This document shows, piece by piece, positions 921 to 57,405 of a stretch of DNA of 64,000 nt. Each line of letters opens with the position of its first letter. The first letter of the stretch is position 1. The notes beneath the pieces are model-generated. The model worked only from the letters and a program-made list of their open reading frames with translations. It was not told the origin of the DNA and ran no database searches. The DNA is from an uncultured Mycoplasmatota bacterium. Its GTDB lineage: Bacteria > Bacillota_I > Bacilli_A > RF39 > UBA660. The stretch lies in NCBI GenBank assembly GCA_946497955.1, contig CAMMMH010000002.1, positions 22,496 through 86,495 of the forward strand. Direction: 5' to 3'. Position numbers and translations under genes: made by a program.

Positions 921-934
921 AGCTATTTTTAGCT
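921..934. promoter_or_regulatory. AGCTAWWWWTAGCT palindrome (AGCTATTTTTAGCT)
   Basis: Exact copy, intergenic. It is part of a ~25-nt block ATAGCTATTTTTAGCTTTATATTAA shared with the sites at 39571 and 57322. Confidence 0.6.
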
Positions 935-987
935 TTATATTAAATTCAATACTGTTAAGTGATTAATTATATATCTTAAATTTTAAT

Positions 988-1001
988 AGCTAAAAATAGC
1001 T
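988..1001. promoter_or_regulatory. AGCTAWWWWTAGCT palindrome (AGCTAAAAATAGCT)
   Basis: Exact copy, intergenic, 67 nt from the site at 921. Confidence 0.6.
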
Positions 1002-1044
1002 TATAAAAAATCGAAAATAATTAATATTTTTCAGAAAAAAATTA

Positions 1045-1052
1045 TATATTTG
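1045..1052 (+). promoter_or_regulatory. Bacteroidota-type -7 promoter box (TAnnTTTG)
   Basis: TATATTTG lies 26 nt upstream of the ATG at 1078. Confidence 0.4.
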
Positions 1053-1077
1053 TAGTGTAATTTAATTATATAAATAT

Positions 1078-1320
1078 ATGGATATAAATCAAATTTATCG
1101 TGATATTGAATCTATACAAGATGATGTAGATAAATGTATTAAATATAATGCAATTATTAATCATCTAGAAGCAGTAAAAAGAAGTATAGGTTTTGAAAGT
1201 ACTAATATACAATGGATTAATGATATAAATAATATTGTTAAAGAAGAAACTATTAATCAAATAGATTTAATAATAGAGAATTGTAGAAAATTTATAAAAT
1301 TATTAGTAAATAAAAAATAA
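1078..1320 (+). CDS. hypothetical protein (80 aa)
   Basis: ORF begins 26 nt after a TATATTTG (TAnnTTTG) box and is tightly followed by the next gene. Confidence 0.5.
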   Translation: MDINQIYRDIESIQDDVDKCIKYNAIINHLEAVKRSIGFESTNIQWINDINNIVKEETINQIDLIIENCRKFIKLLVNKK

Positions 1321-1326
1321 TATATT

Positions 1327-2079
1327 ATGAAAAATTATATAATTGGTATTGCAGGACAAAAAAATTCTGGTAAAGATACTTTAGCTAGTATGATTAATTA
1401 TATATTTTCTGCTGGAATTACTAGAGCTAATTATTCTGATTGGATTACTAAACGTATAACTTATGACAATAAATACCAAAATAGAATAGTACATTTTGCC
1501 GATTCTTGTAAAGATGCTTTATCTATTATATTTAGTATTCCTAGAGTATTATTTGATGATAGAAAATATAAAGACGATTTATGGTATTGTTTTACTAGTG
1601 GAAACTTTGTAGAAGATAATATTATAAATAGAGTTAACGATACTCATATTAATATAACTATTGATATGTTAAAAAATAATAGTTTATCTGATATTATAAA
1701 AAATAATATAGGTAAATTTATATATATAAAAATTCGTACTCTTATGCAATATTTTGGTACAAATATATGTCGTAATTATATTTGTGATTATATTTGGATT
1801 AGATCTACTATAAATAAAGCTGTAGATATTGCATGTATTAAAAGAATATGTATTATACCAGATGTTAGATTTGAAAATGAATGTAATGCAATAAGAAATA
1901 ATGTTAATGATTTATATGGTTGTGTAATTAAAATAATTAGAAATAAAGAAGAAAATATTACTCATTCTAGCGAAAATATAAATTTTTCTACAGAATTTAC
2001 AATTTATAATAATGAATCTCTAATGTCTTTATTTTATAAAGCATTAAATATAGTTGAATCAATAAAAAAGAATAAATAA
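1327..2079 (+). CDS. P-loop NTPase, deoxynucleoside-monophosphate-kinase-like
   Basis: N-terminal Walker A GIAGQKNSGKDT is typical of phage dNMP kinases. It sits directly upstream of thyX, with ATGA stop/start overlap. Confidence 0.55.
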   Translation: MKNYIIGIAGQKNSGKDTLASMINYIFSAGITRANYSDWITKRITYDNKYQNRIVHFADSCKDALSIIFSIPRVLFDDRKYKDDLWYCFTSGNFVEDNIINRVNDTHINITIDMLKNNSLSDIIKNNIGKFIYIKIRTLMQYFGTNICRNYICDYIWIRSTINKAVDIACIKRICIIPDVRFENECNAIRNNVNDLYGCVIKIIRNKEENITHSSENINFSTEFTIYNNESLMSLFYKALNIVESIKKNK

Positions 2080-2981
2080 TGAAAATAATTGAGCCGTTTG
2101 TTGAATTTATTCCTCAAAAAGATGCTAAACATCATGTAGCAACTTGTGCTAGAATATGTTATGGAAAAGAAACTGGAAAAGATGATGTTACTATTAATAC
2201 TCTTATTAATAAACATCATTTTAGTATGTTTAGGCATGAAAGTGTATATGCTATTGGTAAATATAATAATGTTTTAAGAGAAATATTATTTGAATTTAAT
2301 AAATGTCATTATATAGATTATGTAATTACTGAAAAATCAGATAATGGAAAAATATATATTTCTACTAATGGTAATTTTATTATTGATTTAAATCATTTAT
2401 CTGAATGGAACTTTAAATATAAAGTTTTATTAAAATATATAGATAATAATAAAGTAGAACCTGAAGAATTTATAAATACTGAAATAGGATTTAATTTAGC
2501 AAGATATACTTTTAAAGTTACTACTCAAATAAGTACTTCTAGAGAATTTAATAGAGTAAGTCCTAATAATATTGCAGAAAGAAGTACAAGATATGTTTAT
2601 GAAGATGGAAGTATTTGTAGACCACATTGGTTAAAAGGTTATTTTATTTATAAAGATACTAATAGAAAATATATTATATATAAAGATAATAAATTAGATG
2701 AAGATGTTAATCATAAAGTATATAGATTTATAAAATCTTGTGATAATAGTTTTGAAAATTATAAATATCTTGTAGAAGCTGGATTGCATAGACAAGATGC
2801 TAGAGGAGTTCTTCCATTAGATACAGCTACTATTTGTATTTATACTTATTCTATTAAAGAATGGAGACATATTCTTGATTTAAGATATTATGGAACTACT
2901 GGAGAACCTCAACCTAATGCCAAAATTATTGCGAGTATGATTAGAAATGAATTAATATATTTAGGATATGACTTTAGATGA
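2079..2981 (+). CDS. thyX: flavin-dependent thymidylate synthase ThyX
   Basis: HHFSMFRHES, the ThyX-type R-x7-10-S-x-RY signature (REFNRVSPNNIAERSTRY) and RQDARGVLP match conserved ThyX blocks as I remember them. Confidence 0.8.
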   Translation: MKIIEPFVEFIPQKDAKHHVATCARICYGKETGKDDVTINTLINKHHFSMFRHESVYAIGKYNNVLREILFEFNKCHYIDYVITEKSDNGKIYISTNGNFIIDLNHLSEWNFKYKVLLKYIDNNKVEPEEFINTEIGFNLARYTFKVTTQISTSREFNRVSPNNIAERSTRYVYEDGSICRPHWLKGYFIYKDTNRKYIIYKDNKLDEDVNHKVYRFIKSCDNSFENYKYLVEAGLHRQDARGVLPLDTATICIYTYSIKEWRHILDLRYYGTTGEPQPNAKIIASMIRNELIYLGYDFR

Positions 2982-3255
2982 ATTTAGAAAACACCCTGCT
3001 TATAATTATTATATAACTACATTAGTATATAATAATTTATATGGTGATTTAATAAATGACTTTGGTTGTGATTGTATTTTTTATATAGAAACTGAAGAAG
3101 AGTATATATTAGAAATTATTAATGTTAATAATCTAGCTGATGAAGTTGAAGAAAGAATACAATTTTATCTTTCTTTAGAAAATTATGAAGATTTATATTA
3201 TGTTAGAAAAAATAATGAATTTTATTTTTATCTTAAAACATATAGTGATGATTGA
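2968..3255 (+). CDS. hypothetical acidic protein (95 aa)
   Basis: ORF overlaps the thyX end by 14 nt; compact same-strand packing. Confidence 0.5.
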   Translation: MTLDEFRKHPAYNYYITTLVYNNLYGDLINDFGCDCIFYIETEEEYILEIINVNNLADEVEERIQFYLSLENYEDLYYVRKNNEFYFYLKTYSDD

Positions 3256-3487
3256 TAAAGAATTTCATTATAGTAATTATGATGGAGAACATTATTTTAC
3301 AAATAATATTAAAGAAAATGAAAAATTTTATTATACTACTTATCTTATAAATGATAAAAATAGAAAAGAAATAAAATTAAAATTGACAAAAGGAAAAAAT
3401 AAATATAAAAGTTGTAATGAATGTCCTTTAGTTAGATATTATTGTGGTGGAATAGATTGTTGTTGTATAATTAATAAAATAATGTAG
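3248..3487 (+). CDS. hypothetical Cys-rich protein (79 aa)
   Basis: I prefer the ATG at 3248, which forms an ATGATTGA overlap with the upstream stop, over the track start at 3185. The C-terminus CNECP...YYCGGIDCCC is Cys-rich. Confidence 0.4.
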   Translation: MIDKEFHYSNYDGEHYFTNNIKENEKFYYTTYLINDKNRKEIKLKLTKGKNKYKSCNECPLVRYYCGGIDCCCIINKIM

Positions 3488-3491
3488 TTCT

Positions 3492-3668
3492 ATGTATATT
3501 TATATTTTAGATTTTTGTCAGAATAGTATTTATGAAATTAAATGTGATAATGCAAATGAAGATATTGAAATAGAAGAAATTTTTAAACAATATGGACTTA
3601 ATATTGATAACTGTAATTATATGATTTCTGAAGTTAAGTTAGAAATAGAACAAATAGAAAAAGTATAA
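3492..3668 (+). CDS. hypothetical small acidic protein (58 aa), absent from the supplied ORF track
   Basis: My translation is MYIYILDFCQNSIYEIKCDNANEDIEIEEIFKQYGLNIDNCNYMISEVKLEIEQIEKV. It starts 5 nt after the previous stop and ends 27 nt before the next ATG, filling an otherwise empty 208-nt gap. Confidence 0.4.
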   Translation: MYIYILDFCQNSIYEIKCDNANEDIEIEEIFKQYGLNIDNCNYMISEVKLEIEQIEKV

Positions 3669-3695
3669 AAATAATAAATTTAAAATTATAAAGAT

Positions 3696-3956
3696 ATGAG
3701 AAAGAAATTATTAATTTGTGATTGTGGAAAAAGTGACCATCAAATTATTGTAAGTGCATATATAGAAAATAATAATGAGCCTTGGGTTCTTTGTGAAATT
3801 CATTTATCTAGTCAGAGAAATATATTTAAAAGAATTTTATATGCTATTAAATATATTTTTGGATATAAAAATAGTACAGGTTGTTTTGAAGAATTTGTAT
3901 TATCTAAAAAACATGTAAATGATTTAAAAGCTATTATTAAATATTTAAATAAATAA
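3696..3956 (+). CDS. hypothetical protein (86 aa)
   Basis: ORF in the compact + strand block; N-terminal CDCGKSDH motif. Confidence 0.5.
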   Translation: MRKKLLICDCGKSDHQIIVSAYIENNNEPWVLCEIHLSSQRNIFKRILYAIKYIFGYKNSTGCFEEFVLSKKHVNDLKAIIKYLNK

Positions 3957-3959
3957 ATT

Positions 3960-4721
3960 ATGGCAAGTTTATATAGTATTTCGGAAGATATTCTTCGTAT
4001 TTTTGATGAAGTTGAAAATGCGGAAGGAGAAATCACAGATGAACAATATGATAAGCTATGTATAAAACAAGAAGAACTTAATACAAAATTAGAATCTTAT
4101 GTGAAAGCTGTTAAAGAATTTCAAGCAGATGCTGAATTTTGTAAAAAAGAAAAACAATCTATTAATATAAAGCAAAATGTATATAAAAACCGTGTTGAAC
4201 GATTGAAAAAAGCGATGCTTAATGCGGTAATGCAATTTGGTAATGATGGTAAAAATAATAAATATATTGAGTTACCAACTGTAAGAATATTTACTAAAAC
4301 TAGTAAATTAATTCAAAAAGATGAAAATAGAATTAGTATATTTATAAGAGAATTTACTCGTTATATCAATGAATTAGTTTCTCAAGGAATATTATATACT
4401 GGAGAAGATGTTGATTTACAAGGAATATTAAATTGTATAAATGCTAATTGTATAGCTGAAAATGGAGATTCTTTTGTTCCTTTTACTATTTCAGATTTAA
4501 CATCTATGAAATTAGCTATAACTACTACTAGTACAGTATATGATTTATTTAAAGAACACCCACATGCACTTGTTAGTATAGCTGATCTTTTTGATACAAA
4601 TGTAGAAGAAGTTACATCAAATAGTGATTTAGATAAAAGTATTCAATCTTGTATTAATAATAATATACCTCTTCCTACTATTGCAAGTGTTGAATATAAT
4701 AATTCAATTCAATTTAGATAA
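3960..4721 (+). CDS. hypothetical protein, possibly Gp157-like (Sipho_Gp157 family)
   Basis: The N-terminal helical pattern SEDILRIFDEVENAEGEITDEQYDKL...ELNTKLESYVKAVKEFQADAEFCKKE resembles Gp157-family proteins from memory. Not verified. Confidence 0.35.
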   Translation: MASLYSISEDILRIFDEVENAEGEITDEQYDKLCIKQEELNTKLESYVKAVKEFQADAEFCKKEKQSINIKQNVYKNRVERLKKAMLNAVMQFGNDGKNNKYIELPTVRIFTKTSKLIQKDENRISIFIREFTRYINELVSQGILYTGEDVDLQGILNCINANCIAENGDSFVPFTISDLTSMKLAITTTSTVYDLFKEHPHALVSIADLFDTNVEEVTSNSDLDKSIQSCINNNIPLPTIASVEYNNSIQFR

Positions 4722-4724
4722 TAT

Positions 4725-5450
4725 ATGGATATAGAATTTTTTAATATAACAGATAAAGATAAATCTTTAGCAATATTATTAAAAACAGAAGCAAATATAG
4801 TTTTACAAAAATATATTAATGATAAAAAAAGATTTATAGCAAATAAAATTAAATTTGAATATGTTTTAAAAGTTATTGAAACTATTAATTCTATAGATCC
4901 TAATGAAGAAATTATTAATTTTATATTAAATACTTTAAATACTCTATGGAATATTGGAATATTATCTCCTCTTACACTTAATGAAGATGAATTTATTTCT
5001 GAAAAGAGTAGATATGGTAGAGATAATAAAAGATATTCTTATATATATTTAAATGATTTTAATGAAATATGTAATAGAAATGCTTTTAATGTAATTGTTA
5101 AGAAACAATATGATCATCAAGCTAATAGTGAAATTATTTGTCCTTATACAGTTATAAAAGGAAATACTAGAATATACATTAATAAAGGTGGTTTCCTTAC
5201 AGGGGATTATATAGAGTCTTGTAAAATAAGACAAGATATAATTGATAGACATTGTTTTACTATTCAAAGTGTTGTTAATATTCCTTGTTCATATATAATT
5301 GATGAAGAAGAATTGATTTTAACTGTTGATCATAGAGAACCTAAATTAAAAGCTCTTAAGGAATTTTATGATGTTCCTATTAAATTCGATCAAACTATAA
5401 AAGATAGAAAATACGATATTAGAAATTATAAAAAACTTAATAAACAATGA
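4725..5450 (+). CDS. hypothetical protein (241 aa)
   Basis: Long ORF, compact packing, 4-nt overlap with the next gene. Confidence 0.6.
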   Translation: MDIEFFNITDKDKSLAILLKTEANIVLQKYINDKKRFIANKIKFEYVLKVIETINSIDPNEEIINFILNTLNTLWNIGILSPLTLNEDEFISEKSRYGRDNKRYSYIYLNDFNEICNRNAFNVIVKKQYDHQANSEIICPYTVIKGNTRIYINKGGFLTGDYIESCKIRQDIIDRHCFTIQSVVNIPCSYIIDEEELILTVDHREPKLKALKEFYDVPIKFDQTIKDRKYDIRNYKKLNKQ

Positions 5451-6484
5451 GTAAATATTTAGTTAAAGGTGCTCCTTTTAGATATAAAGGTGCAGTAAAT
5501 GTAGAAGATTGTGTTACATCTGAAGAAGTTATTCAACGGTCTGGTTTAAACTGGACTGTTGAAAAATGTAATATATATGCAGAAATGACTGCTATTGAAA
5601 ATAATACTGTAAAAAATAAAGATTCTTTTAATTTAGGATTTAGAGATTATGCTCCAATTGATAATGTTTTTGGTATATATAGAACTGATTATAATATTCC
5701 TCTTGGTATAGTTAAAGGTAGATATACGCCTGTACAAAATATTGATGCTTTTAAATTTTTTGATAAAGCTATTGGAAAAGATAAAGCTATTTGGCAAACA
5801 GCTGGATATTTTGGAAATGGAGAAAGAATATTTGTTAGTGCTAAATTACCTAAAAATATATTAGTGCATGGAGATCCTGTTGAAAATTATTTAGTATTTA
5901 CTACTTCTCATGATGGAACTAGTGGTGTTAGAATATTATTTACACCTATTAGAGTTATTTGTCAAAATACTTTAAATGCTGCTATTAAAAGTAGTACAAA
6001 TTATGTATCATTTAGACATACTCAATCAGTTCATAAAAATATTAGTATTGCAGATGAAATTTTAGGAATATGTAATTATCAAATTGATAATTTGAATATT
6101 ATTTATAATGAGTTATATAAAGATAAATGTACTGATAAAGAAGCCCAAAGTATATTTGCTGATATTATATTAAGTGAAGAAGAAAAGAATAATATTAAAA
6201 ATACAGGACATACTATTGAACAAATTATTTCTAGAAATTGGATAGCTATCGAAGATTCTAAAATTAGTATGAAAAAAGTTAATGTTCTTTCTGAAATGAA
6301 TAATTATTATTTTGACGGTATAGGTCAAAAAGAATATGTTGGCACTAAATGGGGAGTATATAATGCTGTGTCTGGATATTATTCTAATGTTGATAATGTT
6401 GAAGGAATTAAAAGAATGGACACTTTATTGTTTGGAAGTAAATCTAAAAAGATAGAAACTGCTGGTAAATTATTAACAATATGA
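5447..6484 (+). CDS. DUF932-family (phage/plasmid-like) protein
   Basis: FTTSHDGTSGVRILFTPIRVICQNTL matches the characteristic SHDGS...R..C.N block of DUF932 proteins. Confidence 0.7.
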   Translation: MSKYLVKGAPFRYKGAVNVEDCVTSEEVIQRSGLNWTVEKCNIYAEMTAIENNTVKNKDSFNLGFRDYAPIDNVFGIYRTDYNIPLGIVKGRYTPVQNIDAFKFFDKAIGKDKAIWQTAGYFGNGERIFVSAKLPKNILVHGDPVENYLVFTTSHDGTSGVRILFTPIRVICQNTLNAAIKSSTNYVSFRHTQSVHKNISIADEILGICNYQIDNLNIIYNELYKDKCTDKEAQSIFADIILSEEEKNNIKNTGHTIEQIISRNWIAIEDSKISMKKVNVLSEMNNYYFDGIGQKEYVGTKWGVYNAVSGYYSNVDNVEGIKRMDTLLFGSKSKKIETAGKLLTI

Positions 6485-6816
6485 AAATAATTTATAATAA
6501 TATTATTCCTTTTAAAGGATTTTCGTGTATTAATATATGTGGAATATTATTTGTTAGAAAAAATATAATTGTTACTGATATATTATTAAATCATGAAAAT
6601 ATTCATACTGCTCAAATGAAAGAATTATGGTATATATTATTTTATATTATTTATTTATTTGAATGGATTATTAAACTTATATATTATAGAAATTTTAAAT
6701 TAGCATATAGAGCAATTAGTTTTGAAAGAGAAGCATACCTATTTGAAAAAGACTATTACTATTTAAAATTTTATAGACTTAAATTTGCTAGTTTTAAATA
6801 TTTATTTTTAAAATAA
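6481..6816 (+). CDS. small hydrophobic protein with HExxH motif (putative minimal zinc metallopeptidase)
   Basis: HENIH at nt 6592-6606 (aa 38-42) is followed by a hydrophobic stretch WYILFYIIYLFEWIIKLIYY and FEREAY. Confidence 0.4.
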   Translation: MKIIYNNIIPFKGFSCINICGILFVRKNIIVTDILLNHENIHTAQMKELWYILFYIIYLFEWIIKLIYYRNFKLAYRAISFEREAYLFEKDYYYLKFYRLKFASFKYLFLK

Positions 6817-6838
6817 TATTATAAATAATTTTTTTATT

Positions 6839-7435
6839 ATGTTTATACAACCTTGTTTTATAAGAAAAAATACAAAAGAATTAAAAGATAGATTAGAAAA
6901 ATTAGGATATAAAATTTGTAAATGTTGTGAACTTGAAGATGCTATTTGGTTAAATAATTATACACCAACAAGTTCGATACATGGTACAGGTTATAGTAAT
7001 GAAGAAATTGGTATTTCTGCAAAAGAATCGTTAAATTTATTTTTAGAAGAAAATAGTAATTATATTGATTGTGGTACTAATGAGGACTTATTTCTTGCTA
7101 TAGCTGCATTAAGAGATGATACTGATAAAAATCAATATTTTAAACATAATAGTAAAAATCATTTTTATAAATGTGATATGGATAGTTTTAAAGATTATTT
7201 TGATGATTGTAATAAAGAATTAAATGACCATATTGAAGATTATCATAAAGCAACTGTTGATGAACTAAAAGAATTATTAAATAATAAGAAAATCTATTGT
7301 AGTAAATGTGGAGGAACTAATATATTAAAAGAAGCATGGGTTGATGCTAATACTTTAATATATGTTAATGATACATATAGTGATAGATATTATTGCGAAG
7401 ATTGTATGGAAGAAGTTAATGTAATAATAAAATAA
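6839..7435 (+). CDS. hypothetical protein with C-terminal CxxC...CxxC zinc-ribbon-like motif
   Basis: CSKCGG...CEDC near the C-terminus; ORF in the compact block. Confidence 0.55.
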   Translation: MFIQPCFIRKNTKELKDRLEKLGYKICKCCELEDAIWLNNYTPTSSIHGTGYSNEEIGISAKESLNLFLEENSNYIDCGTNEDLFLAIAALRDDTDKNQYFKHNSKNHFYKCDMDSFKDYFDDCNKELNDHIEDYHKATVDELKELLNNKKIYCSKCGGTNILKEAWVDANTLIYVNDTYSDRYYCEDCMEEVNVIIK

Positions 7436-7438
7436 ATT

Positions 7439-7804
7439 ATGTTTTATAAAGAAGATTATATTAGTCTTGATACAGCTAAATTATTAAAAGAAAAAGGATT
7501 TGATGAATATTGTAAATCTTTTTATAAAGAAAAAGAATGTACTAATAAAGAGACTTTTTATCCAAAAGTTACATTATATGAGGTTCAAAAATGGATTCAA
7601 AAAAAATATCAATGTCATATTCAAATAATTGCTGAATTTTATACTAATGGAATAAATTATCTTTTTCAAGTTCTATTTTATGATGAAAATGATTATGATT
7701 GTATATCTGATAAATCATCAGGATTATATGGAGATAATGGAGAATATAAAACTTATGAAGAATGTTTAGATGCTGCTATTAGAGAAGCACTTAAACGTAT
7801 ATAA
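7439..7804 (+). CDS. hypothetical protein (121 aa)
   Basis: ATG lies 4 nt after the previous stop. Confidence 0.55.
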   Translation: MFYKEDYISLDTAKLLKEKGFDEYCKSFYKEKECTNKETFYPKVTLYEVQKWIQKKYQCHIQIIAEFYTNGINYLFQVLFYDENDYDCISDKSSGLYGDNGEYKTYEECLDAAIREALKRI

Positions 7805-7832
7805 ATTTAATAATCATTTAATTAAACAAATT

Positions 7833-8375
7833 ATGAGTAAAATTTTAGATGTAGTTGCAGAAGCTATTGCTTCTGCTTCTATAAAAGAAATGTCGTTAGA
7901 AGAAGTAAGAGAAATTCTTAAACCTATTGATGAATGTCAAGTTAAAATTTATCGAGAAAGTGAAGATGTAAAACTTCCTACTTATGCTAAACAAGGAGAT
8001 GCTTGCATGGACGTTTATGTTCATAGTATTGAGCATAAAAGTGATTGCCGTACAGTTTATCATACAGGTCTTCATTTTAAACTTCCTGAAGATTATGAAA
8101 TGGAGATTCGTCCTAGAAGTTCTAATACTAAAACCACAGCTGTAATGCAAAATGCTCCTGGTACTTTAGATGAAGGATATACTGGAGAACTTTTAATTGT
8201 TCATAGGGATTTATATACACCAGATTCTATGATTAAAAGTTATGAAGTTGGTGATAGAGTTGCTCAAATTATTATTCGAAGAAGAGAAAAAATTATTTGG
8301 AAAGAAGTTAATTCTATTGAAGAATTAGGAGAAACTGAACGTGGAGCTGGAGGATTTGGTAGTACTGGAAAATAG
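7833..8375 (+). CDS. dut: dUTP diphosphatase (dUTPase)
   Basis: All five dUTPase motifs can be read: GDACMDVY, IRPRSS, GTLDEGYTGEL, GDRVAQIII, RGAGGFGSTGK. I prefer the ATG at 7833 (MSKILD...) to the track start at 7770, which overlaps the previous gene. Confidence 0.85.
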   Translation: MSKILDVVAEAIASASIKEMSLEEVREILKPIDECQVKIYRESEDVKLPTYAKQGDACMDVYVHSIEHKSDCRTVYHTGLHFKLPEDYEMEIRPRSSNTKTTAVMQNAPGTLDEGYTGELLIVHRDLYTPDSMIKSYEVGDRVAQIIIRRREKIIWKEVNSIEELGETERGAGGFGSTGK

Positions 8376-8523
8376 AATATATTAGAAAAATTATGACTAT
8401 TGAAGAATTTTATGATATGGACAATGTTACGGTATATGAATATGATAAAAGTGATATTATAGAATATGATGTTATAATTCAAATTAAATAATATTTAATT
8501 TTATCATAATTTATCACATTAAA

Positions 8524-8538
8524 TTCCCTGTAGAGGAG
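8524..8538 (+). repeat. GC-rich motif copy TTCCCTGTAGAGGAG (preceded by ATTAAA)
   Basis: The only intergenic copy, 38 nt upstream of the ATG at 8577. Confidence 0.8.
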
Positions 8539-8576
8539 AAACAATTTATTTATTAACCTTTTAAATTATTTTTGTT

Positions 8577-8990
8577 ATGAATATAGTTTTAATTATTTTA
8601 TGTGTAATTATAATAGTTTTAATTGCACTATTAATTAAATTTGTTTTGGAATATACTAAAGTTATTCAAGAACAAATTACCGCTTATAAAAAACAACTTG
8701 ATTCTAATACCGAATTAATATCTAAAGATATTGTTGATGTTTATAATTTAATTTCTGATAAAAAATTATCTTTAAATAACAAATTAATAGATATATTTAA
8801 TAAATTAGATAAAACTGATAATAATGTTACTGATATTCTTAAAATATCTGATAATGTTGAAAATAAACTTTATAATATTACTAATGATATTAAAACTGTT
8901 AATGATAAAATAGATAAACTTAAAACTAAGAAACAAGCTAAAAATAGCTCATCTAATAAATCAACGATAAATAAATCGAGTAAACAATAA
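8577..8990 (+). CDS. membrane-anchored coiled-coil protein (137 aa)
   Basis: N-terminal TM helix IVLIILCVIIIVLIALLIKFVL is followed by a heptad-like N/K/D-rich region. This is the last gene of the + strand block. Confidence 0.55.
   Translation: MNIVLIILCVIIIVLIALLIKFVLEYTKVIQEQITAYKKQLDSNTELISKDIVDVYNLISDKKLSLNNKLIDIFNKLDKTDNNVTDILKISDNVENKLYNITNDIKTVNDKIDKLKTKKQAKNSSSNKSTINKSSKQ
8936..8949. promoter_or_regulatory. AGCTAWWWWTAGCT palindrome (AGCTAAAAATAGCT)
   Basis: Exact copy within the last 55 nt of ORF 8577-8990, 68 nt from the site at 9004. Confidence 0.5.
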
Positions 8991-9003
8991 TTCGTTAAAT
9001 ATA

Positions 9004-9017
9004 AGCTAATAACAGCT
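9004..9017. promoter_or_regulatory. variant palindrome AGCTAATAACAGCT
   Basis: Intergenic, at the convergence point; both AGCT arms are retained. Confidence 0.45.
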
Positions 9018-9064
9018 TAAATAATTCGTATTTTGAAGATTATAATTATTGTTTATAAATAAAT

Positions 9065-9110
9065 ATGGCTCACGATTAAGAATAAAATCTTTTTCGTGAG
9101 CCATTTTTTT
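9065..9110. terminator. bidirectional intrinsic terminator at the convergence of the + and - gene blocks
   Basis: ATGGCTCACGA (9065-9075) pairs with TCGTGAGCCAT (9094-9104), with inner AAGA/TCTT pairing. A T7 run follows on the + strand and an AT/T-rich tract on the - strand. Confidence 0.75.
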
Positions 9111-9128
9111 ATTTCATTAATCTACTGT

Positions 9129-22649: not shown

Positions 22650-22692
22650 AACTTTATTAATATTTATATGTATAAAAATAACCGCCAAATAA

Positions 22693-22700
22693 CAAAGCTA
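22693..22700 (-). promoter_or_regulatory. Bacteroidota-type -7 box TAGCTTTG overlapping the AGCT palindrome upstream of the giant RNAP-containing gene
   Basis: The - strand reads AGCTAAAAATAGCTTTG. It matches TAnnTTTG exactly and lies ~43 nt upstream of the ATG at 22649. Confidence 0.4.
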
Positions 22701-22709
22701 TTTTTAGCT
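22696..22709. promoter_or_regulatory. AGCTAWWWWTAGCT palindrome (AGCTATTTTTAGCT)
   Basis: Exact copy in the 92-nt spacer, 46 nt upstream of the ATG at 22649. Confidence 0.6.
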
Positions 22710-22741
22710 CTGTATTTGACGGTTTTAATTGGCTGACCTAT

Positions 22742-34119: not shown

Positions 34120-34139
34120 TATAAAATTATTAATTATTA
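34120..34139 (-). promoter_or_regulatory. conserved 20-nt upstream block TATAAAATTATTAATTATTA (copy 1)
   Basis: Identical to 39470-39489. It ends 12 nt upstream of the ATG at 34107. Confidence 0.5.
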
Positions 34140-34152: not shown

Positions 34153-34166
34153 AGCTAAAATTAGCT
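34153..34166. promoter_or_regulatory. variant palindrome AGCTAAAATTAGCT
   Basis: Intergenic, 45 nt upstream of the ATG at 34107 and 68 nt from the site at 34221. Confidence 0.55.
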
Positions 34167-34220: not shown

Positions 34221-34234
34221 AGCTAAAAATAGCT
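34221..34234. promoter_or_regulatory. AGCTAWWWWTAGCT palindrome (AGCTAAAAATAGCT)
   Basis: Exact copy, 1 nt from the stop of gene 34236-34859. Confidence 0.6.
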
Positions 34235-39469: not shown

Positions 39470-39489
39470 TATAAAATTATTAATTATTA
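39470..39489 (-). promoter_or_regulatory. conserved 20-nt upstream block TATAAAATTATTAATTATTA (copy 2)
   Basis: Identical to 34120-34139. It ends 18 nt upstream of the ATG at 39451. Confidence 0.5.
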
Positions 39490-39493: not shown

Positions 39494-39507
39494 AGCTATT
39501 ATCAGCT
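39494..39507. promoter_or_regulatory. variant palindrome AGCTATTATCAGCT
   Basis: Intergenic, 42 nt upstream of the ATG at 39451 and 77 nt from the site at 39571. Confidence 0.5.
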
Positions 39508-39570
39508 TAAATTTACTTTGTTCTTATATGTAATATTATTAATCATAAAGTTATAGTAAGTTTAATATAA

Positions 39571-39584
39571 AGCTAAAAATAGCT
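39571..39584. promoter_or_regulatory. AGCTAWWWWTAGCT palindrome (AGCTAAAAATAGCT)
   Basis: Exact copy, intergenic, within the shared ~25-nt block. Confidence 0.6.
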
Positions 39585-39590
39585 ATATAA

Positions 39591-42123: not shown

Positions 42124-42170
42124 TAAACACAAAAAGCGACAACATGATTATTATATCATATTGTCGCTTT
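42124..42170 (-). terminator. intrinsic terminator after ORF 42189-42698
   Basis: AAAGCGACAA (42133-42142) pairs with TTGTCGCTTT (42161-42170), plus inner TGAT/ATCA. The - strand continues UUGUGUUUAU. Confidence 0.6.
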
Positions 42171-43603: not shown

Positions 43604-43643
43604 TTAATAAAATGTTAGGATAAGAAATTAATCTTATCCTAAC
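43604..43643 (-). terminator. intrinsic terminator after the higher-GC gene 43656-44345
   Basis: Perfect 12-bp stem: GTTAGGATAAGA (43614-43625) with TCTTATCCTAAC (43632-43643), 6-nt loop. The - strand continues AUUUUAUUAAUU. Confidence 0.65.
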
Positions 43644-43655
43644 AAAATCATATTA

Positions 43656-44411: not shown

Positions 44412-44457
44412 TGATAAAAGAAAAGCCACACTTACAATTTTACTTGTAAATGTGGCT
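44412..44457 (-). terminator. intrinsic terminator after ORF 44498-44827, upstream of the higher-GC gene
   Basis: AGCCACACTTACAA (44424-44437) pairs with CTTGTAAATGTGGCT (44443-44457) with one mismatch. The - strand continues UUUCUUUUAUC. Confidence 0.65.
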
Positions 44458-44497: not shown

Positions 44498-44827
44498 TTA
44501 TTTATGTTTATCTTTATATTCTTTAATACGATACATAACAGCTTCATCGAAATCTTTTTCTCTCCAAGATAATTCTTTAAATCCAACTTCTTTTCTTTCT
44601 GGAGGTATAAGACCTAATGCTAAATAATTATCAAAAGTACTTAAACTACAATGTAAAATTTTATCACAAGCATATCTTTTACTTATTCTATGTACACCTC
44701 TATTTAAAGTACTTAAAATATTAATAATTTCATCTAATTCTTCTTCAGATTTATTAGTATTTCCAGCATCAATATTATTTACTGTTTCTAAAAGAATATC
44801 TCTTAATATTTTTAATTTTAAATTCAT
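44498..44827 (-). CDS. putative helix-turn-helix DNA-binding protein (109 aa)
   Basis: ACDKILHCSLSTFDNYLALGLIPP has the look of an excisionase/MerR-type HTH. This is a weak call. Confidence 0.4.
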   Translation of the reverse strand: MNLKLKILRDILLETVNNIDAGNTNKSEEELDEIINILSTLNRGVHRISKRYACDKILHCSLSTFDNYLALGLIPPERKEVGFKELSWREKDFDEAVMYRIKEYKDKHK

Positions 44828-45285: not shown

Positions 45286-45300
45286 ATTATTTTATTTTTA

Positions 45301-45558: not shown

Positions 45559-45576
45559 AATTTTAATTGTTTTAAA

Positions 45577-45894: not shown

Positions 45895-46147
45895 ATTTAT
45901 TTATTTATTTAAAATTAAACTTACTATTAAAATATTATATTTATTAATATAATAATTAACATTATAATTGATAGTATAATTAATTATATCATATTTTAAA
46001 TGTTAATATAATAATAATAAATATAACTTACAAATTTTTTAGAATAAATTTTATCATACTAATAAATATAATATTTAAAATTAATACTTATATTATATAT
46101 AACATTTAATAAATAATTAATTTATTAATATTAATTATTATTTATAA

Positions 46148-49774: not shown

Positions 49775-49792
49775 AATATTTATATTATTTTT

Positions 49793-50821: not shown

Positions 50822-51028
50822 TTACATATTATTTATATCGTTTATAATTGAATTTATATTATTTAATTGTTCTATAGTAAATAATTTAGAATTATCAAGG
50901 CAATGTATTAGAATAGGAATTATCATATTAATAATATTTTGATTTCTTCCATTAATAAAACCAAAATCCAATAATTTAATTAGATTTACTCTATTATTTA
51001 TATCTCTTATAATTAATTCATTTTCCAT
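50822..51028 (-). CDS. hypothetical protein (68 aa)
   Basis: Its stop abuts the next start, and it overlaps the upstream gene by 11 nt. Confidence 0.5.
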   Translation of the reverse strand: MENELIIRDINNRVNLIKLLDFGFINGRNQNIINMIIPILIHCLDNSKLFTIEQLNNINSIINDINNM

Positions 51029-51578: not shown

Positions 51579-51588
51579 ATTAAACTAA

Positions 51589-51624
51589 ATAGAACTATCA
51601 CTAATAATATAATGATAGTTCTAT
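51589..51624 (-). terminator. hairpin after gene 51640-52533 (probable terminator)
   Basis: ATAGAACTATCA (51589-51600) pairs with TGATAGTTCTAT (51613-51624). The U-tract is weak. Confidence 0.45.
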
Positions 51625-51639
51625 ATTTAAATTAAAAAA

Positions 51640-52533: not shown

Positions 52534-52568
52534 ATTGTTATATTATTTTTAATGTTAAATTATTATGT

Positions 52569-53240: not shown

Positions 53241-53241
53241 A

Positions 53242-54390: not shown

Positions 54391-54409
54391 AACTTAATTA
54401 TTTATAAAA

Positions 54410-55885
54410 TTACAATTTACATTTCAATAAGAACATTTTGGTAGAATTGTTTACTTGCAGACCAATAGAAGATTTAACTTCATATCTAGCCATATCTACT
54501 TCAGTAGCTGCATGATTGGTATTAGGCAATCCCCAACAAGCAGGAATATCTGTCATACCTTCAATAACTTTAGCTTTATAAATTTGTCCTTTTTGACGAA
54601 CAATACGAACATTTCTTTGACCTTCATAAGAGCTAAAATCAATAAATGCAGCCTGGTGAGAAGTAATAGGAAGACCACTTCTGGGGTGGATTTCTCCATT
54701 TTGTTTAGCAGCTTCAGCAATAGTTCCTTTATCAAAGAATGAACAATGCTTAACTGTAACAGTATGACCATCAACTGTTTTATATTTTCTAAAATAAGCA
54801 CCGTATTCAAGATTATCTCCCATACCTTGAATTTCTTTATCACCAAGAGGAGTAAGGAAACCATTTTCTTTAGCATCAGTTTTCATAGCCTCATCAAAAT
54901 CTTCCATGAAACCTTTACCTGCCATAAGAACAATATTCATAATACCACTATCTGTATCTCTATCGATAACATCTCCAACAGTACGTTTAATTTTATTCAA
55001 AGTAAGATATTCACCATAGGTATCATAATTAGATTCACGACAAATTTCAAGCATACCAGAAGTATGAGGAATAGGTTTTCCATTATCCCTATCTTTCAAA
55101 CTAATTTCGCCATTAATATTGCGATTGTATTCAGCAAGCCAAAGACGTTCTTCGTTCATTACACGCATATTAATATTGAATTGTCGCATCTCTTCATTAA
55201 TCCAAAGTTTATTAGAACCGCCGCTTTTATCTTTAAATTCATATTCAGTAATAACATTGGCCAAGTTACCAGCAATTTCTTTAGAATATCTATGGAACTC
55301 AAGTTGAGAAGTCATTTTACCGGGCCCCATAGAATTACTTCTATTACCTTTAGAATAAGATTCAGAAACAGTAGGAGCACTCATACTCCAATATTTTCCA
55401 ACTTCTAGCAAACTATTATCTACAAATGCACTAGGATTAGGATTTGTAAGTTTTACTAAATAGGCATATCCATAAGGAGATTCTCCAAGATCTTTTTGAA
55501 TACGAAGTTGAGTTTTACCATCAGGACCGATAAGACCATATTGTTCAATAAACCAATGAGTAGAAAAATGTACTTCAAATTCAGCACCACCTTCTCCAGG
55601 TTTAGTATTACTTGTATTAAAATAAGTAACCATATCGGTAAATTTCATACGACCCATAGTTGACCATGTCCATTGTACAGTAGCAATATCAACAGTTCCT
55701 GCTTTACCTTGACCTTCTGTCATGAATGTAAGAGGAAAACGGTCATCGTCCATTCCAAAATTGTACGTAAGAAAATTGTTAATTTCTACAGGTTTTTGCA
55801 ATTGAAGATAAGAAATACTTTCCTCATTAGAATATCCTCTATCTTCATATTTTCCCTGAGAAAGAACTTTCATTTTATAATACAT
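54410..55885 (-). CDS. major capsid protein
   Basis: 491-aa ORF in the terminase-portal-scaffold-capsid order, with raised G+C and codon bias suggesting high expression. The size fits the crAss-like MCP as remembered. Confidence 0.7.
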   Translation of the reverse strand: MYYKMKVLSQGKYEDRGYSNEESISYLQLQKPVEINNFLTYNFGMDDDRFPLTFMTEGQGKAGTVDIATVQWTWSTMGRMKFTDMVTYFNTSNTKPGEGGAEFEVHFSTHWFIEQYGLIGPDGKTQLRIQKDLGESPYGYAYLVKLTNPNPSAFVDNSLLEVGKYWSMSAPTVSESYSKGNRSNSMGPGKMTSQLEFHRYSKEIAGNLANVITEYEFKDKSGGSNKLWINEEMRQFNINMRVMNEERLWLAEYNRNINGEISLKDRDNGKPIPHTSGMLEICRESNYDTYGEYLTLNKIKRTVGDVIDRDTDSGIMNIVLMAGKGFMEDFDEAMKTDAKENGFLTPLGDKEIQGMGDNLEYGAYFRKYKTVDGHTVTVKHCSFFDKGTIAEAAKQNGEIHPRSGLPITSHQAAFIDFSSYEGQRNVRIVRQKGQIYKAKVIEGMTDIPACWGLPNTNHAATEVDMARYEVKSSIGLQVNNSTKMFLLKCKL

Positions 55886-55906
55886 AATTCAATCTGTTTA
55901 AATTAA

Positions 55907-57175
55907 TTAATAACCAAATTCAATTTCTTTATTCTTTTTATTGTCAATTTTAGGTTTAGTTATTCTAACAGAATTAGTTTTTTCTTTAGCCTTTAAACGT
56001 AAATTATTAACATTTTCTTTATTAATAGCCATATTTACTAAATTAGAATAATTTCCACCAACAAATTTTAAATAAGCTCGAAGAATTTCATCATCTCTTC
56101 TACTTTCAGGAGTTTCATCGTTTAATGCTTTTTGATAAGCAGATAGACCATTTTCATCAACTCTATATATCCAATTAAAAAAATCTTCAGGAGTGGCAGA
56201 TATTTTTCTTCCGTCTCTATTAATTATAATATTTTCTGGTATTTTATATCCAGCTATTGTTCTAGACTTAATAACATCATGTACTCCGTCCCAGTATTTT
56301 TCTAATTTTTTTATATTTTCTTCTTCTTTTTCTCTAGCTTCTTCTGCGAGTTGTTCTCTATATTGTTTATCAGATTCCTGCAAACCAGCCAATTCTTCTT
56401 TAGCAGTTGTAAATAAAGTACCAGAAGATTTAAGATATTGAATATAATTTTCAACATTTCCTTTTCTTCCTTGCTCTTCCCAAGCACTTCTAATAATAGC
56501 TTCTTGTTGAGCTTCATTAGTTTCATCAATAACAATATTGCTTCTATCGGGTATTTCGCCAAATCCTTTTAAAGAATTTCCATTAGCAATATAATAATCT
56601 AAAACATCAGACAATATAGGATAACGTTCATAAAGAGTATTTATAGCTGTTTCATAATGTTCTTGTTTAGAATTTTCAATAACAGCATTTATATAATTAG
56701 TTATACCTTCTACATTATTTTCAAAAGTTATAGGTTGGTCATTTTCATCAACAATAGATACTCCTAATTGTTTTTGAATATTATCAATATTTATATCATT
56801 ATTATCGTCAATTTCATCAAATTCACTAAGATAATTATCTACATCTTTAGCCTCTTTAAAAATATTCCCGCTCTCATCGAGCATATTACCATTATCATCA
56901 ATAGTATATTTTTTATCTGCAATTTCAATAATACTACCAGGAACTAATTCTCTTTTTTCAGTATCTTGTACTTTATCTTTATCATTATTTCCTGCATCAT
57001 TGTTATTATTTTCAGAAGAGTTATTACTAATTTCATTGTTACTTATATTATCAACATTATTATTTTCTATATTACCAGTATCTAAATTAGTTTTATTTTC
57101 TTCATTACTTACTTCATTGTCAAGATTAACATCATTGTTACTTACATCTTGACCTTCACCAAAATCAAAATTCAT
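55907..57175 (-). CDS. scaffolding-like protein (422 aa)
   Basis: It lies between the portal and capsid genes. It has a long N/D/E-rich low-complexity N-terminus followed by an E/K/Q-rich helical part. Confidence 0.4.
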   Translation of the reverse strand: MNFDFGEGQDVSNNDVNLDNEVSNEENKTNLDTGNIENNNVDNISNNEISNNSSENNNNDAGNNDKDKVQDTEKRELVPGSIIEIADKKYTIDDNGNMLDESGNIFKEAKDVDNYLSEFDEIDDNNDINIDNIQKQLGVSIVDENDQPITFENNVEGITNYINAVIENSKQEHYETAINTLYERYPILSDVLDYYIANGNSLKGFGEIPDRSNIVIDETNEAQQEAIIRSAWEEQGRKGNVENYIQYLKSSGTLFTTAKEELAGLQESDKQYREQLAEEAREKEEENIKKLEKYWDGVHDVIKSRTIAGYKIPENIIINRDGRKISATPEDFFNWIYRVDENGLSAYQKALNDETPESRRDDEILRAYLKFVGGNYSNLVNMAINKENVNNLRLKAKEKTNSVRITKPKIDNKKNKEIEFGY

Positions 57176-57321
57176 ATCTTTGTTATTTTAAGGTTTAATA
57201 CTATTACGAATATAAAATTATTTTATAAATATATCAATAGCAATATCTACATTAGTAGAAATATTATATTATATATCCGCATATTTATTTATACTGCTAT
57301 ACAATAAATTATAAAATATAA

Positions 57322-57335
57322 AGCTAAAAATAGCT
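57322..57335. promoter_or_regulatory. AGCTAWWWWTAGCT palindrome (AGCTAAAAATAGCT)
   Basis: Exact copy in the 295-nt portal/scaffold spacer, within the shared ~25-nt block. Confidence 0.6.
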
Positions 57336-57391
57336 ATATTTAAAAATGGCATATATAAATTATTTCCCATATAGAAGATAATAAATCAATA

Positions 57392-57405
57392 AGCTAAAAA
57401 TAGCT
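57392..57405. promoter_or_regulatory. AGCTAWWWWTAGCT palindrome (AGCTAAAAATAGCT)
   Basis: Exact copy, 70 nt from the site at 57322. Confidence 0.6.

Follow-up and report, generated by a model that had tools for sequence, protein, structure and literature searches.

Phased pairs of a 14-base palindrome at operon boundaries of a crAss-like phage lineage: a candidate double operator

Introduction

Looped double operators are known from gal (OE/OI, with HU), lac (O1/O3), deo and phage lambda (OL/OR); each is a single locus, loops span 90-2400 bp, and the sites lie in phase on the same face. The elements described here resemble them in their two dyad-symmetric sites, their helical-repeat spacing and a possible architectural protein at the apex, but differ in occurring at about six loci per genome, in spans of 68 or 78 bp that are near half-integral turns, and in a function that is putative. 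The conserved inverted repeats (CIRs) of phiC31, a phage of Streptomyces, and the dispersed C1 operators of P1 are likewise (near-)palindromic; they are repressor sites scattered over many intergenic places, near promoters and terminators. They differ in belonging to the immunity systems of temperate phages, in their unrelated sequence and in having no fixed pairing distance. Extragenic palindromes are also familiar as REP/BIME elements of enterobacteria, 35-nt G+C-rich stems in bacterial chromosomes spread by RAYT transposases. REPs lie at the 3' ends of genes and are often paired in inverted orientation across a linker of defined length, in some cases with an IHF site between the two, whereas here the palindromes measure 14 bp, reside in a phage and have no transposase. 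Rho-independent terminators resemble our sites in standing after stop codons and in having a T-rich tract behind an inverted repeat; unlike them, the stem here is 5 bp (-3 to -4 kcal/mol), conservation falls on the sequence and not on the structure, and true terminators stand alongside.

Among phages, the stoperators of Cluster A mycobacteriophages (L5, Bxb1, TipsytheTRex) are immunity repressor sites: asymmetric 13-14-mers, single, bound by the monomeric repressor of a temperate phage and thought to halt elongating RNAP and to control promoters (PMC9283540). The present sites are similarly short, specific, repeated many times per genome, mostly within short intergenic spacers, and oriented to transcription; in contrast to stoperators they are palindromic, come as phased pairs with a third element, and belong to a phage group not known as temperate. 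The sole cis-element so far reported for Crassvirales is the phi14:2-type 'tripartite' middle/late promoter, reported only for beta-crassvirinae genus VI (bioRxiv 10.1101/2020.03.07.982082). Read from the phi14:2 genome, it comprises an A-rich tract, TTGAC/TTTGCA, 18-19 nt and TAnnTTTG, and is an ordinary Bacteroidota promoter. It occupies comparable places, ahead of the RNAP gene and in the region of portal and capsid, but has neither AGCT palindrome nor pairing.

Results

The window – a stretch of 64,000 nt of contig CAMMMH010000002.1 – derives from a crAss-like gut phage. The palindrome AGCT-N6-AGCT, 14 bases long, matches it 11 times where 1.07 matches are expected, and AGCTAWWWWTAGCT nine times against an expected 0.04; none of 100 shuffles reached the observed counts. 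An unbiased scan of palindromes (all 4-mer arms, gaps 0-12) placed AGCT with N6 and GCTA with N4 among the top three of the window. A sequence-only reading had listed eight exact copies of AGCTAAAAATAGCT or its complement, at 921, 988, 8936, 22696, 34221, 39571, 57322 and 57392; all were found, and together with its variants at 9004, 34153 and 39494 they are precisely the 11 matches (Table 1). Its 'looser variants' at 29345 and 62205 are AGCT-N8-AGCT, and we exclude them because of the longer gap, their coding position and their lack of conservation in relatives. The concentration in spacers that it described holds: 10 of the 11 sites are non-coding (binomial P = 2e-13), where non-coding DNA, left between long ORFs, is 4.3% of the window. 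The single site within an ORF, 8936, lies in the last 55 nt of ORF 8577-8990. The 11 sites form five pairs, spaced 67-77 bp, and one single site.

Table 1. Palindromic sites and associated elements in the window
Locus	Element	Position	Strand	Sequence	Context
A	gene-upstream site	921-934	+	AGCTATTTTTAGCT, then TTATATTAA	T-form in gene's sense
A	central element	960-967	+	TGATTAAT	starts exactly 26 nt past end of 921-934
A	gene-proximal site	988-1001	+	AGCTAAAAATAGCT	67 nt from first site
B	site	8936-8949			end of ORF 8577-8990, convergent junction with vRNAP gene
B	site	9004-9017		AGCTAATAACAGCT	68 nt from 8936
C	site	22696-22709	-		46 nt upstream of vRNAP ATG (22649)
C	possible partner	22784-22797	-	AGCCGATTATAGCT	88 nt upstream, in end of 2172-aa gene
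D	gene-upstream site	34221-34234	-		T-form in sense; 1-2 nt past 207-aa gene stop
D	gene-proximal site	34153-34166	-		68 nt from first; 45 nt before 721-aa gene ATG
E	gene-upstream site	39571-39584	-	then TTATATTAA	T-form in sense; 6-7 nt past 279-aa gene stop
E	central element	39538-39545	-	TGATTAAT	starts 26 nt after gene-upstream site
E	gene-proximal site	39494-39507	-		77 nt from first; 42 nt before 1529-aa gene ATG
F	gene-upstream site	57392-57405	-		65 nt past portal gene stop
F	gene-proximal site	57322-57335	-		70 nt from first

The start-to-start spacings reported earlier (67, 68, 68, 77 and 70) were verified, and pairing at about 70 bp extends beyond the window, to relatives and to 59 unique IMG/VR pairs. 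In that IMG/VR search, which allowed spans of 64-80 nt, spacing was bimodal, 53 of the 59 unique pairs measuring 67-69 or 77-78 bp. Pairs are not a feature of bacterial genomes, where 69 chance hits were spread evenly and only 16 fell into these classes (Fisher P = 7e-15 against IMG/VR). The two classes differ by one helical turn, and orthologous spacers change class – A and B measure 67-68 here and 77 in ctbg_1 – which indicates that length is selected in steps of one helical turn. Spans of 68 and 78 bp correspond to about n + 0.5 turns and so place the paired sites on opposite faces, an unusual arrangement for simple looping.

Throughout more than 100 sites the arms read AGCT, without compensatory variation; GGCT (wobble) and AGCC (mismatch) variants are rare and about equally frequent. 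Half-sites are one helical turn (10 bp) apart around a centre that is always A/T-rich. Read on the T-run strand, 33 of 118 sites have G at position 5 and only 5 have C at position 10. The sites have polarity, carrying TATATT at the flank and avoiding one arrangement of centres: 31 pairs are T-run/A-run, 31 have the same orientation, four are ambiguous and one alone is A-run/T-run. The gene-upstream site is nearly always T(U)-form in sense, with TTATATT after it, and the gene-proximal site mostly A-form. A third element, TGATWAA, occurs in about 45% of pairs, exactly 25 nt past the gene-upstream site (29 of 67 pairs have TGAT beginning exactly at +26, against a shuffle maximum of 8), and is itself followed by TATATT. 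The polarity given by centre, TATATT flank and TGAT agrees with gene direction in 24 of 29 cases. The AA/TT periodicity signal is only weak. Of the 25-nt block said to be shared by three sites, exact copies stand at 919-943 (+) and 39562-39586 (-); the third, at 57315-57337, shares 23 nt.

The loci differ in their surroundings. A terminator hairpin (840-880) ends 40 nt before the first site of pair A, and beyond the pair come a host-type -7 box, TATATTTG, at 1045-1052 and an ATG at 1078. Pair B marks the junction of the genome's two convergent halves, where no gene starts; its 9004 site falls between the ORF end at 8990 and a bidirectional terminator (9067-9102). A conserved 20-bp hairpin (22680-22724, -25.6 kcal/mol) has site C at its tip and a T run behind it. 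Its possible partner is kept at 89 nt in five relatives, a conservation that coding constraint could explain. The 57322 site of pair F lies 146 nt before the ATG of a 422-aa gene, with the capsid gene next. As previously noted, the proximal sites of C, D and E are close to gene starts: the distance to the ATG is 46 nt for the 4506-aa gene, 45 nt for the 721-aa gene and 42 nt for the 1529-aa gene (pair E; 41 nt in relatives). The suggested overlap with the Bacteroidota box TAnnTTTG is a full match at one site, 22696 (TAGCTTTG), and is lost in relatives (TAGCTATG); perfect boxes, where present, are about 40 nt downstream of the pair.

Relatives that share only 64-76% identity in the portal protein and 67-73% in vRNAP show the motif, its pairing and its positions again. 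Orthologous spacers with conserved sites are the one after the portal gene, those on either side of the vRNAP gene and the one preceding the dNMP-kinase operon; arms and spacing persist although the intervening DNA has diverged. When ten orthologous A spacers were aligned, the invariant columns were essentially the two sites and the central TGA. At the coding site of pair B, relatives retain the arms although the encoded amino acids have changed. Every member of the Crudevirinae that was examined retains the upstream site of pair F, cr3_1 among them and p-crAssphage as a remnant; the pairs are absent from the p-crAssphage and cr3_1 genomes. A second conserved dispersed motif, CCTCYACRGGG, was noticed inside genes, and in some relatives it stands at the position of site 2.

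Discussion

We favour, with about an even chance of being right, a lineage-specific phased double operator at operon boundaries for a putative sequence-specific protein. The arms, invariant without covariation, suggest that AGCT-N6-AGCT is recognized as double-stranded DNA, and the candidate binder is probably a phage product that acts as a dimer or a dimer of dimers. Among the possibilities raised by the sequence-only reading, an operator with paired sites for a dimeric regulator emerges from the comparison of relatives as the best supported: invariant arms, half-sites one turn apart, spacing conserved in steps of about 10 bp. Several observations nonetheless count against it. Asymmetric sites whose polarity follows the genes fit a transcription-coupled signal equally well; the bias at positions 5 and 10 is what a G-U-tolerant hairpin on the T-run strand would lead one to expect; the hairpin that includes site C is of RNA type, is conserved and shows one compensatory pair; and the operator reading must accommodate near half-integral spacing and a pair B without a gene start.

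An alternative is that the sites act in RNA, where the transcript would fold into a 5-bp/4-nt hairpin (AGCUAUUUUUAGCU) with a U-rich tract behind it. Such a hairpin could terminate or pause transcription, weakly or with the help of a factor; it could serve in processing or stabilising the transcript; or it could load an antiterminator in the way of boxB. The U-form of the gene-upstream site with its TTATATT, the G-U pair that G at position 5 would allow (C at position 10 being rare), the terminator-like hairpin at C, and the avoidance of an A-run then T-run order that would permit convergent transcripts to overlap all speak for action in RNA, as does pair B, whose T-form faces the vRNAP transcript rather than the mRNA containing the site. 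We consider it unlikely all the same: the bare hairpin reaches only -3 to -4 kcal/mol where the canonical terminators of this phage reach -17 to -25, the arms never covary and their wobble and mismatch variants are about equally common, gene-proximal sites are mostly A-form, spacing in 10-bp steps has no RNA rationale, and Rfam holds no match for the sites. Canonical terminators also often stand just upstream of the pair; of 48 co-directional pairs, 28 have a strong hairpin (<= -10 kcal/mol) no more than 80 nt upstream of site 1. As an ordinary intrinsic terminator, the weak stem proposed earlier is unsupported; independent terminators would not hold a fixed spacing. About as unlikely, in our judgement, is a promoter for non-standard machinery, be it the virion RNA polymerase or a host RNAP that a phage factor redirects in the manner of T4 MotA/AsiA, reading the AGCT site with TATATT or TGATWAA-TATATT boxes. 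Orientation with the genes, TGAT at its fixed offset with TATATT next, conserved distances of 41-46 nt to three ATGs, and the places shared with phi14:2-type middle/late promoters (upstream of the RNAP gene and the post-portal gene) accord with such a promoter; yet half of the pairs are inverted, which would set two promoters face to face 54 nt apart, pair B serves no gene, and A-type spacers have a perfect host-type TATATTTG box about 43 nt past site 2. Nor does the module match -33 TTTG / -7 TAnnTTTG or the phi14:2 promoters as read from the phi14:2 genome, and no common motif was found for phi14:2 vRNAP transcripts (bioRxiv 10.1101/2020.03.07.982082). The promoter element proposed earlier is not of the host core type (the -33 element is absent and the -7 box present in one of 11 sites); since the module nevertheless points with transcription and lies shortly before gene starts, some regulatory role associated with promoters stays likely.

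That the modules serve some DNA transaction other than transcription – replication initiation or priming, a recombination 'boundary' for module exchange, nick sites, or nucleation of genome compaction by virion IHF/HU-like proteins – strikes us as very unlikely. Multiple dispersed copies, helical phasing, AT-rich spacers, a pair where the convergent halves meet and the presence of CCTCYACRGGG at the place of site 2 in some relatives are compatible with it, but the sites keep strictly to operon boundaries with an orientation that follows the genes; 14-21 identical bp make a short substrate for homologous exchange, which would need no fixed spacing; p-crAssphage has IHF-like genes without the pairs; and the AA/TT periodicity signal is only weak. 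Chance or composition in a genome of 24% G+C is scarcely conceivable: AGCT does occur at twice the count expected from mononucleotide composition (263 against 130), but the shuffles, the retention of motif, pairing and positions in diverged relatives, and the spacing statistics refute an artefact.

On the operator reading, the functional unit would be directional and composite, a module some 80-95 bp long: site 1, AGCT-(A/G)TTTTT-AGCT, then yTATATTRAA; 25 free nt; often TGATWAA; 25 or 35 free nt; and site 2. Two protein units bound at a distance of 6.5 or 7.5 (perhaps 8.5) helical turns would touch across the AT-rich spacer, perhaps assisted by a protein that bends the DNA at the central element; the phage encodes IHF/HU-like proteins. 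We identified no binding protein; the one lineage-restricted neighbour tested, ORF 481-834, has no recognisable DNA-binding fold, and a homolog of it occurs in cr3_1, a phage without the pairs. At an operon boundary the order runs from stop codon, often through a canonical terminator, to module, promoter region and next gene. The bound complex may gate transcription there, blocking read-through from upstream, activating or repressing the downstream promoter, or both, and might in this way time middle and late expression. The modules would then represent a control element not previously described for the abundant crAss-like phages, and the palindromes candidate docking sites for a regulator.

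Layout of the window and its AGCT sites

The window (24% G+C) encodes portal, terminase and capsid proteins together with a 4506-aa virion RNA polymerase (vRNAP), and its gene order and sequence similarity match crAss-like phages of the subfamily Crudevirinae. Genes on the + strand (72-8990) make up a nucleotide-metabolism and replication module; those on the - strand (9129-63756) encode the vRNAP and the cargo, tail and head proteins. The window start cuts an ATP-dependent DNA ligase gene (1-479, +), and ORF 72-479 matches only the end of the adenylation domain. For a 241-aa ORF (4725-5450, +), Pfam shows a weak similarity to the Thoeris inhibitor Tad3 that stays below threshold (E = 0.0016; 18.6 bits, cut-off 27); the ORF has homologs in the related phages ctbg_1 and cr3_1, with none detected in p-crAssphage. 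Searches for Rfam families and tRNAs across the window returned none.

The palindrome AGCT-N6-AGCT – the AGCT site – occurs 11 times where 1.07 copies are expected, a number reached in none of 100 shuffles, and ten of the 11 avoid long ORFs, lying in DNA that makes up 4.3% of the window (P = 2e-13). These matches are precisely the exact copies and three arm-conserving variants listed in a sequence-only reading of this DNA, whose coordinates for them all proved correct; the pair spacings, the common 25-mer and the distance of 42-46 nt from sites to three ATGs that it reported were likewise borne out. Two 'looser variants' with an N8 gap (29345 and 62205) were dropped because they lie in coding DNA and are not kept in relatives. 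A site has an A/T run at its centre and 10 bp between the middles of its half-sites, and its arms often extend to 5 bp (AGCTA/TAGCT). Over 100 sites have AGCT arms, and a change in one arm is not matched by a compensating change in the other. Most sites in the window are paired, and a pair with its spacer is here called a module. The spacer upstream of the 1208-aa gene (45895-46147; 253 nt, extremely A/T-rich) is without AGCT site, terminator or recognisable motif.

Coordinates of AGCT sites, associated elements, terminators and second-motif copies (pairs are given as site 1, the gene-upstream member, then site 2, the gene-proximal member, except pair B at the convergent junction, which is given in order of position)
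Feature	Position	Strand	Remark
Pair A	921/988		spacing 67 nt
Pair B	8936/9004		spacing 68 nt
Site C	22696		single
Pair D	34221/34153		spacing 68 nt
Pair E	39571/39494		spacing 77 nt
Pair F	57392/57322		spacing 70 nt
TGAT element, pair A	960-967		
TGAT element, pair E	39538-39545		
Host-type box TATATTTG	1045-1052		A-type spacer
20-mer TAATAATTAATAATTTTATA, spacer D	34120-34139	-	
20-mer TAATAATTAATAATTTTATA, spacer E	39470-39489	-	
Block AGCAGTATAAATAAA	57284-57298	-	downstream of pair F
Terminator	840-880		canonical
Terminator	9067-9102		canonical; bidirectional, between convergent genome halves
Terminator	42133-42170		canonical
Terminator	43613-43644		canonical
Terminator	44424-44457		canonical
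Terminator	51579-51639		canonical
CCCTCTACAGGG(R)ATTTAA, exact	19445, 23967, 26393, 32821, 58767, 62493		
CCCTCTACAGGG(R)ATTTAA, looser	8526, 14327, 35182, 40137		

Conservation and spacing of the pairs

Our comparison set comprised 13 loci fetched via the portal protein, five via the vRNAP and the complete genome of ctbg_1 (Whopevirus); searches with the 207-aa and 1529-aa proteins gave no loci. Sought in these related crAss-like genomes, the motif is present at the same junctions in every fetched relative: after the portal gene, downstream of and immediately upstream of the vRNAP gene, and before the dNMP-kinase operon, with spacings of 67-70 or 77-78 and a protein identity to the window of 64-76%. 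Aligning ten orthologous A spacers leaves the two sites and a central TGA as the invariant columns. The inter-site DNA of paralogous spacers is not alignable, and a search between the two sites found nothing conserved besides TGATWAA and the TATATT flanks. Where a B site falls within an ORF, AGCT...AGCT is retained even as the encoded residues change. A mobile repeat of the MITE or REP kind can be rejected, given that interiors differ between paralogous pairs and only the sites and TGAT are kept. Paired sites are absent from p-crAssphage (Carjivirus) and cr3_1 (Diorhovirus), in which only a lone AGCT-N6-GGCT after the portal is kept; the system is therefore restricted to a sub-clade. The 300-nt portal-downstream spacer holds a further element, the block AAGCAGTATATATAAT (AGCAGTATAAATAAA in the window), kept in loci L001-L012 and in cr3_1.

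The spacing of the pairs is far from arbitrary. An IMG/VR scan for two AGCTNWWWWNAGCT sites 64-80 nt apart gave 69 stretches; almost without exception they come from contigs of low G+C and 60-98 kb, with at most five on any one contig. Spacings of the 59 unique pairs were 67 (9), 68 (19), 69 (6), 71-73 (4), 77 (10), 78 (9) and 79-80 (2), the odd values stemming from high-G+C chance matches. The same pattern in 596 Gb of bacterial genomes yielded 69 scattered pairs, spread evenly over 64-80: the classes 67-69 and 77-78 thus hold 53 of the 59 IMG/VR pairs against 16 of the 69 chance pairs (P = 7e-15). This flat distribution, with no Bacteroides enrichment in the 596 Gb, speaks against a host origin of the motif, which we rejected. 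The favoured spacings lie near half-integral helical turns. Orthologous A and B spacers measure 67-68 in the window and 77 in ctbg_1, a class switch which indicates that length is selected in steps of about one helical turn. A third class at 88-89 is possible; site C may have a partner at that distance upstream, inside the preceding gene, where coding constraint could explain it.

The scan also touched on contig assignment. URRF01000001.1 (90,224 bp), deposited as 'uncultured Mollicutes bacterium UMGS1266', carries four pairs with the phage-type spacings 68, 68, 69 and 78 (L122, L130, L142 and L148), is as large as a crAss-like genome and is probably a mis-binned crAss-like phage; USBW01000147 ('Tenericutes') is likely another mis-binned phage.

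Orientation of the sites and a third element

Relative to the flanking genes, site 1 is almost always in the T-form, that is, read on the strand with the T-run centre. Among 67 unique pairs, T-run then A-run, which makes the whole pair dyad-symmetric, and same orientation are each found 31 times, with one pair in the opposite order and four ambiguous. The sequence yTATATTRAA follows a site read in the T-form, and does so for both members of inverted pairs. A third element, with the consensus TGAT(T/A)AAy and often followed by TATATT, starts exactly 26 nt past the end of one site in 29 of the 67 pairs (next commonest position, 7; maximum over 500 shuffles, 8) and points in gene direction in 24 of these 29 cases; in the window it is absent from pairs B, D and F. 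The +26 distance is identical in the 68 and 78 classes, and the extra turn must therefore sit between TGAT and site 2. A search of the spacer for phased A-tracts gave only a weak 10.5-11-bp signal.

Terminators, RNA signals and promoters

A junction usually runs from the stop codon through a terminator, site 1, TGAT and site 2 to the promoter region and the ATG, and in 28 of 48 co-directional pairs a strong hairpin precedes site 1 by no more than 80 nt. Stems of intrinsic terminators are G+C-rich, typically at least 7 bp long and at or below -8 kcal/mol. The bare AGCT hairpin, a 5-bp stem with two G-C pairs, reaches only -3.1 to -4.0 kcal/mol, against -17.6 to -25.3 kcal/mol for the six canonical terminators – hairpin plus T-run – at other operon ends of the window; what follows T-form sites (TTATATT or TATTGAT) is T-rich and interrupted. 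A terminator consensus scan called the canonical terminators and none of the AGCT sites. Energy, and true terminators alongside, led us to reject the AGCT site as an ordinary intrinsic terminator. The exception is site C, 46 nt before the vRNAP start, which forms the tip of a 20-bp hairpin (-25.6 kcal/mol) followed by a T run. Five genomes keep this hairpin, one of its pairs appearing among them as A-U, G-C and U-A; a true terminator has thus formed here around an AGCT site. Position 32644 of ctbg_1 presents a similar case. As for the sites in general, we think it unlikely that they are an RNA-level signal. Polarity along genes would suit such a signal, and on the T-strand position 5 is often G and position 10 rarely C – the sole observation favouring a hairpin there, and not a decisive one – but the arms show no covariation, and single changes that are compatible and incompatible with wobble pairing are about equally frequent.

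Polarity along genes would also fit an unconventional promoter, a reading that we likewise think unlikely. The Bacteroidota primary-sigma promoter (-33 TTTG / -7 TAnnTTTG) is rejected because the module has neither box: no TTTG consensus was found in the upstream flank of the sites, and only one perfect TAnnTTTG box lies inside any pair. The overlap or near match with the -7 box noted from sequence is a full match only at site 22696, which reads TAGCTTTG (TAnnTTTG) and is TAGCTATG in relatives; other sites have TAGCTTTA, TTAT, ATAT or CTAT at that place. A perfect host-type box, TATATTTG, does stand about 43 nt past site 2 in A-type spacers. The experimentally mapped middle promoters of phi14:2 (bioRxiv 10.1101/2020.03.07.982082), which we read from NC_021806 for g070, g075, g108, g110, g092 and g093, consist of an A-rich block, TTGAC/TTTGCA, 18-19 nt and TAnnTTTG; direct comparison revealed no similarity and excludes a tripartite promoter of this type. 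Transcripts of the phi14:2 vRNAP share no common motif (same study). The N4-type vRNAP hairpin promoter, with a 5-7-bp stem and a 3-nt loop, is found upstream of early genes only, whereas the AGCT loop is 4 nt and the sites occur in the late/structural and replication modules and at the convergent junction; it too is excluded. Spacers D and E have the 20-mer TAATAATTAATAATTTTATA in common, placed between the ATG and the gene-proximal site. This 20-mer may be the promoter region that serves the 721-aa and 1529-aa cargo genes, and TAATTTTA resembles TAnnTTTG.

The operator reading and the search for a binder

We give roughly even credence to the view, drawn from sequence comparison, that the pairs are double sites for a dsDNA-binding dimer (or dimer of dimers) controlling transcription at operon boundaries. 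A dimer at two cooperating sites is suggested by the invariant arms, half-sites one turn apart and A/T-rich centre, by retention in a coding region, by spacing steps of a helical turn, by the dyad symmetry of many pairs and by the restriction to one lineage. Of the proposals in the sequence-only reading, paired operators are the best supported, by a dyad with half-sites about one turn apart, sequence-specific conservation and helical-step spacing. Control at operon boundaries is indicated by the position between terminator and next gene and by polarity along genes; the bound module would block read-through and/or gate the promoter of the next operon. Our credence goes no higher because no binder was found, the spacings are near half-integral, pair B has no gene start and polarity fits the rival readings too.

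The search for a cognate binder among candidates found none; the window is without the early-gene region. ORF 481-834, next to pair A and not detected in p-crAssphage, showed no DNA-binding signature: Pfam and PHROG gave no match, its AF2 model (pLDDT 83) is largely beta, and no PDB structure came below E = 0.1 in Foldseek. It has a homolog in cr3_1, a phage without pairs. ORF 44498-44827, earlier put forward as a candidate, has no family match and a homolog in cr3_1, not in ctbg_1. The 'DNA binding protein' of ctbg_1 is an orphan with no homolog in other deposited phages.

A second motif

A mini-palindrome, CCCTCTACAGGG(R)ATTTAA, has six exact copies in the window against 0.04 expected. Each of these falls within a long gene; both strands and all three codon phases are represented, so that selection acts at the nucleic-acid level. 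In relatives CCCTCTACGGGG stands at the orthologous places, with 5-8 copies per 20-30 kb, and p-crAssphage has ten copies of (AT)CCTCCACGGGGAG(T), the clade-wide core being CCTCYACRGGG. In the portal-downstream spacer of six relatives (L001, L002, L005, L006, L007 and L009) CCTCTACGGG stands 72-73 nt beyond the first AGCT site. In the window and in four further relatives that place is taken by the second AGCT site (+69/70), and in ctbg_1 CCTCTACGGG abuts site 2. From this single orthologous spacer, the CCTCTACGGG motif and AGCT sites may be linked.

Comparison with known systems and significance

At operon boundaries the logic of the module resembles that of the stoperators of mycobacteriophages (PMC9283540), as that of the pairs resembles looped double operators. 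Stoperators are asymmetric 13-14-bp sites, bound by a monomeric immunity repressor and set in one orientation to transcription, whereas AGCT sites are palindromic and their pairs divide evenly between inverted and direct; neither a repressor nor an integrase was seen in the window. By analogy the module may work like a stoperator, though it is not a member of that class; the phage group carrying it is not known to be temperate. We found no description of the motif in the literature, and what appears to be new is a set of dispersed, operator-like phage sites, palindromic, phased in pairs and accompanied by a third element.

No viruses of the human gut are more abundant than crAss-like phages, yet hardly anything is known of how they time gene expression. 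In a 2023 review of the order neither 'promoter' nor 'terminator' appears once, and the sole cis-element reported is a host-type promoter in one beta-crAss genus (bioRxiv 10.1101/2020.03.07.982082). A conserved module at operon boundaries that is easy to recognise offers a handle for a regulator search by DNA pull-down or DAP-seq, could delimit transcription units in uncultured genomes and provides parts for controllable expression in Bacteroides phage engineering. As a metagenome marker for the sub-clade, the pairs have already flagged the 90-kb 'Mollicutes' contig as a probable crAss-like phage. A bolder and unlikely proposal is that the modules are a genome-wide set of polar 'gates'. In each, two dimers bound to the palindromes and bridging a bent spacer of 54 or 64 bp would form a small nucleoprotein complex that halts RNA polymerase coming from the operon upstream and also turns the next promoter on or off. 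On this view CCTCYACRGGG might offer the same machinery another place to dock, and one early phage protein would programme the middle-to-late switch across a whole clade of crAss-like phages.
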